This document shows, piece after piece, positions 5,401 through 8,400 of a DNA stretch of 63,125 nucleotides (the first letter of the stretch is position 1; the number at the start of each line of letters is the position of its first letter). The notes under the pieces were generated by a model. It was not told where the DNA came from. It saw only the letters and a list, made by a program, of their open reading frames with translations, and searched no databases. The position numbers and the translations under genes were made by a program. This DNA is from a virus: UHGV virus genome UHGV-1373161; one strand, given 5' to 3'.

Positions 5401-8400
5401 CCCGAAGGTCTGCTGCAGGTAGTTTTTCACCGCGCCGATGATGGATTCCGCCCACTTGCGGATCCCGGCTGGCATCTTCTCGAAGTTCTCGACCGCGTAA
5501 GCGCCAAGCTCCTCGATCACATGGTCGCGGGCGGCGTCATTCATCCGGTCGCCCTGGCGCTGCGCATTCTGGATGCGCTCGACGGCAGCAGTCCATTCGT
5601 TTTTCGCCCCGCCGTTCTGCGCTGCGCGGTAATACTGCCCCAGGCGGTCCATCAGGTTCACCCAGCGGCGATCACCCCCGATATTGCGCATACCGGCGTG
5701 GAACAGCTCATGCATCAGCGTCGGCTGAACGTCTTCCGGGCGCAGGTTGTACAGCGCCAGGTGGATTTTGCCGTCAGGGTCAATCCAGCCACCAGCGCTC
5801 AAAAACTCCGGCGCTGGCGGGGCGCTGTGAAGCTCCAGGCGGCCAGCGTCGAGCAGCTCTTTCGCCGCACTGCCGATACTGCCTTCAGTCAGCGACTCCC
5901 TGGCCGCTGCGATGCTGAAACGGATATCCGGATTGCTGCTGTCGAAATTGCCGTTGTTGCGTGACGCAGATTTTACCTGCTCCGGACTAAAGGCTATGGC
6001 CCAGCGGGTTTTCGGCCCATTCAGATACTCATCACTGTCAGGGTCAAACTCATACGCTCGATCCTCTTCATAAACGTCATTGATGATTACGCCGTCATAG
6101 CCAGCCTTCTCCATATCTTCGCGCGAGTTTTTGCGCAGATAAGAGCGGAACTCCGCCTGATCCTCGAAAACCAGCGGGTTTTTGATAGCCAGATAGACAT
6201 CGTGAATGTTCGACGCGGCGGACGACGATGCATTTCGTGCAGAGAAATCTTCAGCGTCAGGCCTGTCGCTGGTGAAAAATGCTCCGATGTTGTCATTCAT
6301 CGGATTGCGCGCGCTGCCGTCTGCGAGACGGTCGGCCGTGTTGAATACGGTGAAGTCCTCAGGCGTGCCGTGGTACATCACCTGCGGGTTGCCGTTCTCG
6401 TCAACGACCTTGCTACCCTCAAACCAGCGCTTGAATGCTGGCGTATCGGTCTGGTGAGAAACAACCTCCCCCGGCACCGAGTACATCGTGCCGTCTGCGG
6501 CGTTGGCGATAGCCTCATCGGCGGTGAGCGGCTGGCGCTCCGGAAGGGTAAGCCCCTCGATGCGGTCAAACAGCTCGTTAATCGTCTGCGCGCTGGACAG
6601 GTCAGGACGCACCGGAATGATAGATCCGTCCGATTTGTCGTGGCGCTCGAACACCAGCACTTCGGTCGCAACTTTGGTCCCGGCGCGCTCGAAAGTGACC
6701 CACGGCATTTTAATCCGGGCCACCAGGTCAAGGCCTTTGGCCTCATCACCGCCGAAGAACTGATCGAAGCGGCGCTCAGAGATACCGCCGCGCGGCACCA
6801 GCGCAACAAGGCGGCCGCCCTGGCGAAGATGTTTAGCCGCTTTAGCCAGGTGCTCGTATGCCGTCTTACCTCCGGTACCGAACGGCGGGTTCATCACGAT
6901 AGCGTCGAACTTGTTCGCGCGGGAAAGGTCTTCAAACCGCCCATTGATGATACGGGCGGTACCGTTCGCCAGCGCGGCACGCTGTGACAGGTCATAGGAT
7001 GGTTCAACCATCGTGACATCGGACTGCGCCGGGAAGAAGCGGGCAATTGCACCATGACCGGCAGACGGTTCGAGAACCTTGTCTCCTGGCTTGATGTTCG
7101 CCCACTCGACCATTTTCAGGCCCACCGGCTCCGGCGTGGCGAAATAGTCTTGTCCCTCGCGCTGATCCCGGCGCTTGGTGTTCTTCTGCTGTGCCCAGTA
7201 GAAGGTTTTAGCCTTGTCGAACGGGGTAATATTCTGGCTCAGCGCCTGATCCCGCTCTTTGCCACCTTTGCCATCTTCGCGGCTGGCCTGCATCGGCTCA
7301 GCCTCGTTATAGGCGTCGATGAAAGACTGCTTCAGCCCGCGCGCCTCCTCACCCAGCGCCAAGTTTTCAGCAGTAGCCGCACGCTCTGCGATTTTGCTCG
7401 CGAAGGTGCTGGCCTCCCAGCTGGTGCCGGTGGTCATGTAGCGGAAAATGGCGTCAGAGGCCTGGCCGGTTCGGTAGATACGCCCCTCGATCTGCGTGGC
7501 GGCCACCGGGCGCGTAGGCATGCCCAGGTTGATTTCCACGCGCTGGTGTTTGCCGGTGGTGTCGTGAAGGCTCACGCCCTCGCGACCGGCATCGGACTGC
7601 ACCAGGATGAGGTTTTTACCGCTATTATCGGCGTTGAAGAAGTCGGCGTTCTGGCGGCGCTTGCCTTTGGATACCGTGCCGTTGAACAGCAGCACGTTCG
7701 GGAAGGCCTTTTTGATCGTATTGATAGCGGAATCCAGGCCGCTGAAGTTGATGCGGAACATCGGGCGCTGGAAAAGCTCGCTCGCTGTCGAGCGCATATC
7801 CAGATCCTTCATTTCCGCCAGCGCCTCAGCGAACGGGCTGAACCCCCCGCCCTGATTGTAGTCGTGGAAGACAACAACCTTACGCCCCAGCTTCAGGTGC
7901 TCTCTGATAACCGGAACCGCTGCGCGCGCCTTCATTGACTCCAGCAGGAACATACGGCGCTGGTAGTCGAACGTGCGCATCACCTCGTCATAGATCGGGC
8001 GATAGATGCCGTTTTCCGCTTCATTCAGGAAGCGAAGCGCGTCATCGAGCTTTTTACCAGCAGCGTCGTCAATCAGCTGGAAGCGGCGATCATAGTCGAA
8101 CGGTACATCGAGACGGCGGCCGAACAGCGCGCCGGTATCCTTCAGCCACTGATTGAAGTTCTGCTCCATCAGCTCGGTGTTAACCCCGGCCTCCGGCTGC
8201 GTGAGCTTGTTGTAGCGCATGCGGTACCCGAAGTGCTCCATGTAGAAGCGCTCGCGGTCATTCGCGCTGTTGTATCCGCCGGTGCTGTTTTCGGTGTAGC
8301 GCTCAGCTGGTGGCGTATGGTGGAAGAGATAGCCTTCGGCGTAGTCCGTATTTTTCACGTAGGCGAACGGCGTGGCCGAAAGGAAAACAACCTTCGGCAA

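Follow-up and report, generated by a model that had tools for sequence, protein, structure and literature searches.

Giant multi-effector proteins of phages and conjugative elements were defined as 'polyvalent proteins' by Iyer, Burroughs, Anand, de Souza and Aravind (2017, J Bacteriol; PMC5512222), who predicted that phages package and inject them and that conjugative elements transfer them. Among protein-modifying domains, the polyvalent proteins of phages and plasmids most often contain an ADP-ribosyltransferase (ART) of the His-Tyr-Asp (H-Y-D) type, with an active site composed of a histidine in strand 1, a tyrosine in strand 2 and an aspartate in strand 5, and modification of host proteins was postulated for it (PMC5512222). 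These domains were placed in the Tox-ART-HYD2 clade as kin to poly(ADP-ribose) polymerases (PARPs) and to the cholix and diphtheria toxins, and were explicitly contrasted with the Arg-Ser-Glu (R-S-E) enzymes Alt, ModA and ModB of phage T4 (PMC5512222); a 2022 survey by the same group restates this description (PMC9503650). Here we analysed a segment of the virus genome UHGV-1373161, a stretch of 63,125 nucleotides hereafter called the window. An earlier note made from the letters of this DNA had proposed that positions 5941-6423 encode a nicotinamide adenine dinucleotide (NAD)-binding fold of the His-Tyr-Glu (H-Y-E) class inside a giant virion protein and that such a domain would be new there. 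The segment is a new and divergent member of ART-PolyVal, an established family with existing annotation, and its novelty in a virion protein does not stand, as the H-Y-D ARTs of polyvalent proteins were published in 2017 (PMC5512222) and are named in Pfam and UniProt.

The minus-strand translation of window positions 5941-6423 gives the quoted peptide FEGSKVVDENGNPQVMYHGTPEDFTVFN...IGAFFTSDRPDAEDF..., in frame within an open reading frame (ORF) of 4,019 amino acids (2431-14490, minus strand), of which it covers residues ~2690-2850. The plus-strand frame across the segment is interrupted by a stop. Long antisense ORFs are present over it (e.g., 6202-6987 on the plus strand), as expected for a giant gene that is GC-rich at third codon positions (0.68). 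The motif positions and spacings of the earlier note were exact in this translation, with Y2706-H2707-G-T followed by G2736-A-F2738-F2739-T-S-D, whose two phenylalanines sit 31 and 32 residues past H2707, and by F2749, 11 residues past F2738. The two acidic stretches proposed to hold the catalytic residue, VFEDQ and YEEDRAYEFD, correspond to residues 2774-2778 and 2807-2816.

Residues 2697-2849 match the entire Pfam model PF18760, defined as 'ADP-ribosyltransferase in polyvalent proteins' (model positions 1-140 of 140; E=4.5e-23; 83 bits vs a gathering score of 31.2). A family profile built from the first nine homologues and scored against 1.84 billion representative proteins retrieved 33,490 protein clusters (50% identity) at E<=1e-3, of which 23,516 reached E<=1e-10. 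Giants of 2,000-7,300 amino acids are frequent among the matched proteins, and up to 17 matched domain stretches occur in one protein. Conservation was read from 847 domain copies, taken from the best 150 proteins together with the first matches; their source is the highest-scoring, multi-copy proteins, and they cannot count as independent of one another. H2707 lies in a column that is 93% histidine and is followed by a glycine conserved at 92% (G2708). The position of F2738 is occupied by Tyr (42%), Phe (29%), Trp (15%) or His (9%), together 95% of copies, F2739 is conserved at 78%, and the position of F2749 holds Tyr in 63% and Phe in 24%, jointly 87%. Further downstream, D2799 stands in a G-Y-D-G motif (Asp 97%, G2797 93%, G2800 89%), and a last conserved block comprises Q2838 (91%), K2840 (86%) and S2841 (87%).

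The same alignment decides between the candidate catalytic acids. At E2776, D2777, E2808 and E2809 the commonest residue is matched in fewer than 30% of copies each, and, compared with the family, residues 2810-2829 are inserted, so that YEEDRAYEFD falls mostly in a lineage-specific loop. Consequently, the histidine and the aromatic positions of the earlier note are kept among homologues and its acidic residues are not; the family acid is D2799, which it had not listed. Secondary-structure order and the published description (PMC5512222) lead us to predict that D2799 is the catalytic acid, and it is this residue together with H2707, rather than the glutamates proposed before, that is relevant for mutagenesis. 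Since an aspartate occupies the place where H-Y-E enzymes have their catalytic glutamate, the domain is of the H-Y-D type, here in the form H-F-F-D, and belongs to a sister clade of the H-Y-E toxins and PARPs rather than to that group. The ART fold and the pocket positions for His, Tyr and Tyr are shared with H-Y-E enzymes proper, and the glutamate at the start of strand 5 is absent. All the marks of ART-PolyVal were found, namely a profile match above threshold, a strand-1 histidine, a strand-2 aromatic residue, an aspartate at strand 5 and a location in a polyvalent protein. The R-S-E class, which includes T4 Alt, ModA and ModB, the cholera and pertussis toxins and the C3/VIP2 enzymes, was rejected, as its set of a strand-1 arginine, a strand-2 S-T-S and a (Q/E)-x-E at strand 5 was not found in the segment. 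H-F-F-D is the third commonest configuration in the family (8.6% of 708 full copies), and the phenylalanines therefore represent normal variation, not decay.

Structure prediction supports membership of the H-Y-[E/D] clade of NAD-binding ART folds, which includes diphtheria toxin, exotoxin A (ExoA) and PARPs. An AlphaFold2 model from 10 aligned sequences had a mean predicted local distance difference test (pLDDT) of 68.6; with 36 aligned domain copies this value was 82.1, with a predicted template modelling score of 0.79. In the model, H2707 lies in strand 1 (E26-30), F2738 in strand 2 (E58-61), F2749 in the next helix (H64-74) and D2799 directly before strand 5 (E121-127), while Q-V-K-S is part of the last strand; the low-confidence stretches are loops, at residues ~2720-2733 and at the acidic residues ~2807-2826. 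All of the 50 best Foldseek matches in the PDB are PARP catalytic domains, each of them individually weak (E ~1e-2, TM-score ~0.4, probability <=0.97). Fold-search scores were highest for PARPs (Tankyrase, PARP1, PARP2, PARP4, PARP15 and others, 6.1-7.0), followed by MbcT (5.7), ParT/RES (5.6), Exotoxin A (5.5), Diphtheria toxin (5.4), AcrIF11 (5.1), Tpt1 (4.9) and Arr (4.7), with R-S-E toxins (pertussis, LT, C3-like) at <=4.5 and DarT at <=3.9. Among predicted viral structures, Foldseek returned 81 matches at E<=1e-3, many of them already labelled 'ART-PolyVal-like domain-containing protein' or 'PolyVal ADP-ribosyltransferase'. An hhalign comparison of the family profile with the catalytic domain of diphtheria toxin gave a short alignment (E=0.008) in which F2738 falls opposite Y54 and F2749 opposite Y65 of the toxin. 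The H-Y-E-like fold that had been proposed for the segment is thus borne out by the Pfam match, the model with its PARP-like best structural matches, the hhalign pairing and the conservation of H2707, as is the mapping of the histidine and the aromatic pair. Matches to T4 gp5-type spikes (E ~1), returned when PDB sequences were searched with the domain alone, were dismissed as chance.

Judged from its nucleotide matches, the phage is a Lastavirus-like Klebsiella podophage. Its giant gene shows 96.8% nucleotide identity, across 91% of its length, to the gene for the 'PLxRFG protein' of Klebsiella phage vB_KpnP_ZX1 (hereafter ZX1; MW722080.1), and the first 4.8 kb also matches SopranoGao, LASTA and SJM3. 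The two proteins share 95-98% identity over residues 1312-2673 and 2855-4019 (numbering of the window protein), that is, on both sides of the ART. The corresponding slot of ZX1, nucleotides 7771-8168 of its giant gene, is a shorter segment that matches the GNAT acetyltransferase model Acetyltransf_7 (E=3.8e-6). The ART module is therefore a swappable cassette, with a GC content of 54%, compared with 56.5% for the ZX1 cassette and 61.5% for the flanks; the lower values in both phages suggest an exchangeable effector bay. Replacement of an ART by a GNAT in a near-identical protein fits a plug-in effector that modifies the host. The ART cassette was absent from every other deposited Klebsiella or Lastavirus phage searched, and close relatives were found neither in 185,579 species-representative genomes nor in IMG/VR. 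The best full-length phage matches reach 37% identity (Pseudomonas F116 and USP_25), deposited phages do not exceed 39%, and the best matches among 5.8 billion proteins show 39-50% identity in partial alignments; by these values, this copy is a sequence outlier within its family. The features of the giant ORF are collected in Table 1.

Table 1. Position in the window and basis of the features assigned to the giant ORF and its ART module (aa, amino acids; nt, nucleotides).
Feature	Position	Strand	Basis
ART-PolyVal (PF18760) domain, aa 2697-2849	5944..6402	-	Pfam
Full conserved module, aa 2683-2859: Pfam core, N-terminal helix and C-terminal tail	5914..6444	-	Conservation and model
H2707, strand-1 histidine of the H-Y-D triad (Y-H-G-T)	6370..6372	-	Conservation and model
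F2738-F2739, strand 2 (G-A-F-F-T); F2738 at the canonical Tyr position	6274..6279	-	Conservation and hhalign
F2749, second aromatic, helix after strand 2	6244..6246	-	Conservation, hhalign and model
D2799 in G-Y-D-G, conserved acid, predicted catalytic residue	6094..6096	-	Conservation, model and PMC5512222
Acidic strand 5-6 loop, aa 2807-2827, YEEDRAYEFDPDSDEYLNGPK; contains the second acid candidate of the earlier note	6010..6072	-	Conservation and model
Q2838-V-K2840-S2841 motif, last strand	5968..5979	-	Conservation; strand E160-162 of the model
Exchangeable cassette with the ART module	5867..6471	-	blastn homology with ZX1 ends at giant-gene nt 8019 and starts again at 8625
Second ART-PolyVal-related module, aa ~895-1025	11416..11808	-	hhalign profile-profile
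Giant ORF, 4,019 aa, DarB-like / PLxRFG polyvalent protein	2431..14490	-	ORF translation, PHROG and NCBIfam
SLT lytic transglycosylase, aa 46-141, N-terminal	14068..14355	-	Pfam PF01464, E=7.5e-15
Superfamily 2 (SF2) helicase (ResIII to Helicase_C), aa 1836-2395	7306..8985	-	Pfam ResIII, Helicase_C_4 and Helicase_C
Methyltransferase, aa 2470-2580, directly upstream of the ART cassette	6751..7083	-	Pfam MTS, E=2.3e-7; PHROG DNA methyltransferase families
H-E-L-F-H, aa 2927-2931, 68 residues downstream of the ART module	5698..5712	-	Motif; sub-threshold Pfam WLM, E=0.14
LPD39 (aa 3092-3293) and PLxRFG (aa 3332-4005), C-terminal	2476..5217	-	Pfam PF18858, E=6e-59; NCBIfam NF032893, E=3e-205

The giant gene stands in a late-gene context, flanked on one side by genes for virion structural, internal virion and tail proteins and on the other by endolysin, holin and spanin genes, and its product matches the 'DarB-like antirestriction' family phrog_10089 (E=0). 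In phage JC1, which is Bcep22-like, 51 unique peptides of a protein that bears this annotation, gp69, were identified by mass spectrometry in virions purified with CsCl (PMC9144972). By analogy with JC1 gp69 and from gene position, the giant protein is probably carried in the virion; to this extent, the earlier description of it as a virion protein is well founded. As for P1 DarB, Bcep22 gp75 and JC1 gp69, the likeness concerns the carrier protein and not the ART module. The carrier has in common with the DarB-like/PLxRFG group a helicase and methyltransferase pair and a gene at the morphogenesis end, just before the lysis genes; P1 DarB has no ART.

We propose, with a probability of about 0.72, that the segment is an NAD+-dependent H-Y-D ADP-ribosyltransferase from clade Tox-ART-HYD2 that, as an ejected effector, would mono-ADP-ribosylate a host target, most likely a protein. 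The giant protein would be made late, packaged in the capsid and ejected together with the DNA of this temperate phage of the Lastavirus type. Its SLT end would open the peptidoglycan, and the helicase and methyltransferase pair would work like P1 DarB. The ART module would then bind host NAD+, with H2707 contacting the NAD+ ribose, F2738 and F2749 stacking on the nicotinamide and D2799 activating the C1''-N bond, and a single ADP-ribose would be put on a host target, most probably a protein, early in infection and in favour of phage establishment. A protein target is preferred because the fold ranking puts PARPs and toxins above DarT and Tpt1 and because of the clade assignment in the literature (PMC5512222).

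Such a scheme has precedents at several distances. With ART-PolyVal, whose prototype is the virion RNA polymerase (vRNAP) of Roseovarius Plymouth podovirus 1, the domain shares the full-length Pfam match and the His, aromatic and Asp positions, and with the class as a whole it shares a setting in a giant multi-effector late-gene protein with an SF2 helicase, an adenine methyltransferase, a lytic transglycosylase and LPD domains. It differs from a typical member by phenylalanines in place of both tyrosines, a minority yet common variant, and by an acidic loop of 20 residues instead of a median of 4. Diphtheria toxin, ExoA and PARPs have a catalytic glutamate, whereas this domain has the aspartate of G-x-D-G; it also lacks the helical regulatory domain of PARPs and the translocation and receptor domains of the toxins, and its delivery would presumably occur by phage ejection and not by secretion as for diphtheria toxin and ExoA. 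T4 Alt offers the same proposed logic of an ART that travels in the capsid, is injected along with the DNA and is directed at host proteins at the start of infection, although Alt is an R-S-E enzyme. AcrIF11, also encoded by a phage, is a diphtheria-toxin-like ART and inactivates a CRISPR complex, but it is a small stand-alone protein expressed after entry and has no detectable sequence relationship to this domain.

Several points weigh against a role as an ejected transferase. Both canonical tyrosines are phenylalanines and the acid is Asp instead of Glu, substitutions that would lower activity in classical toxins yet are common variants in this family. Virion packaging is deduced from where the gene lies and from the protein of a distant phage, JC1, that bears a similar annotation. 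Comparison of the family profile with PDB sequences returned nothing at E<=10, so that no solved structure is detectable by sequence, and the searchable literature on ART-PolyVal and polyvalent ARTs consists of computational papers, among which we found no biochemical or genetic test.

Other chemistries have to be weighed as well. MbcT and RES toxins score nearly as high in the fold search, and the module might act like them as an NAD+ glycohydrolase or phosphorylase, altering the host NAD+ pool or pre-empting NAD+-dependent defences. We consider this unlikely, for the solved structures that score highest are PARPs and toxins that modify proteins, the original description of the family places it alongside protein-modifying clades (PMC5512222), and with one or a few copies in each virion, depletion of the cellular NAD+ pool would probably be slow. 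No better placed is the ADP-ribosylation of nucleic acid, either phage DNA in cis as a DarB-like anti-restriction measure or, as with DarT or Tpt1, DNA or RNA of the host. DNA-acting domains, the helicase and methyltransferase pair, do adjoin the ART, but the fold scores of Tpt1 and DarT are below those of PARPs and toxins and neither gives a profile match. The DarT-like DNA or Tpt1-like RNA chemistry that had been envisaged for the segment is thus weakly disfavoured. Outright identity with these enzymes was rejected, for Tpt1/KptA since its fold with basic catalytic residues was not found (lower fold score of 4.9, no profile match) and for DarT since neither fold nor family profile was recovered (score <=3.9, no profile match).

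The substitutions listed above may also be read as signs of a catalytically dead relic that persists as a spacer, an element for packaging or a domain for binding; another ART-like module of this protein lacks the family aspartate, and the closest relative, ZX1, manages without an ART module. All family-conserved positions are intact, however (H2707, G2708, the aromatics, G-x-D2799-G and Q-x-K-S), and the H-F-F-D configuration is common in the family at the frequency given above, which makes decay even less probable than the alternative chemistries. A chance resemblance in a non-ART sequence, to which the shortness of the individual motifs could point, is hardly credible in view of the Pfam E-value, fold searches that return ART domains only and the more than thirty-three thousand related clusters.

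The preferred reading of an ejected, host-modifying transferase leaves room for a narrower and rather doubtful proposal, according to which the stretch from the methyltransferase to H-E-L-F-H would be an effector bay and this outlier ART with its long acidic loop an anti-defence enzyme rather than a general host-takeover factor. Its target would then be a strain-specific Klebsiella immunity protein, as for AcrIF11 with the CRISPR complex, or DNA itself. Should this be true, ZX1 and this phage would form a near-isogenic natural pair with which a first target could be sought for a family of >30,000 clusters. Any tractable example would be useful in so large a family without a reported experimental function, and the natural ART/GNAT difference between near-identical proteins offers a handle on the role of the module in host range or defence evasion.

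The conserved module extends beyond the Pfam model on both sides. On the N-terminal side, a helix P-A-F-K-R-W-F followed by S-K-V-V-D is strongly conserved (F2686 89%, W2689 95%, F2690 91%, S2693 94%) and predicted with a pLDDT >90. The C-terminal tail lies just past the Pfam model and ends in N-P-D-I-R-F-S (residues 2853-2859; window 5914-5934, minus strand). I2856 is 91% conserved among the ~70% of family copies that have the tail, which is disordered in the AlphaFold model (pLDDT <50). Between modules of polyvalent proteins, this tail could serve for processing or cleavage, or for docking. Within the module, the strand 5-6 loop carries an insert of 20 residues, compared with 4 at the median and 14 at the 90th percentile of the family, with a pLDDT of 46-60 and residues that are not conserved. 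In other ARTs, the strand 5-6 loop region is a determinant of target choice.

A six-frame search of the whole window found no additional ART-PolyVal copies. A second and more divergent module of the giant protein, without a Pfam match, aligns by hhalign with the ART-PolyVal profile over 120 collinear columns (probability 89%, E=2.2e-6). It keeps the histidine (H906) and both tyrosines (Y939 and Y952), has a glycine at the family aspartate position and shows an invariant glutamate (E1009) one strand further. Such features suggest that it may be an unrecognised branch of the ART superfamily or a pseudo-enzyme. Its homologues include stand-alone proteins of ~150 amino acids. One of these (P0163) is encoded at positions 5001-5462 of a 369-kb JGI metagenome contig (L002) that looks like a jumbo phage, next to small same-strand genes for HNH, endonuclease V, TerD and isochorismatase-family proteins; the last could be a nicotinamidase, and a link to NAD+ salvage is only a thought. 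Just past the second module, residues 1026-1311 of the window protein (~10558-11415, minus strand) form a second stretch that varies relative to ZX1 (residues 1026-1222), with rearranged or inserted low-complexity and small-domain segments.

Other parts of the carrier gave weaker signals. The HExxH motif H-E-L-F-H possibly marks a zincin metallopeptidase, a weak lead; it would fit the metallopeptidase described as the main hub of polyvalent proteins (PMC5512222) and proposed to release effector domains. A ParB/Srx-like region with D-G-H-H-Q-W (residues ~1350-1486; window ~10030-10440, minus strand) matches phrog_2859 (E=1.4e-20) and, at only E=0.24, Pfam ParBc_2, and is probably a DdrB-like ParB domain of polyvalent proteins. 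A separate 154-residue acyl-CoA N-acyltransferase of the GNAT type (17237-17701, minus strand; phrog_4470, E=1e-50) is encoded among the virion structural genes that lie upstream of the giant gene, and an acetyltransferase gene is likewise found in the morphogenesis regions of ZX1 and Bcep22-like phages.

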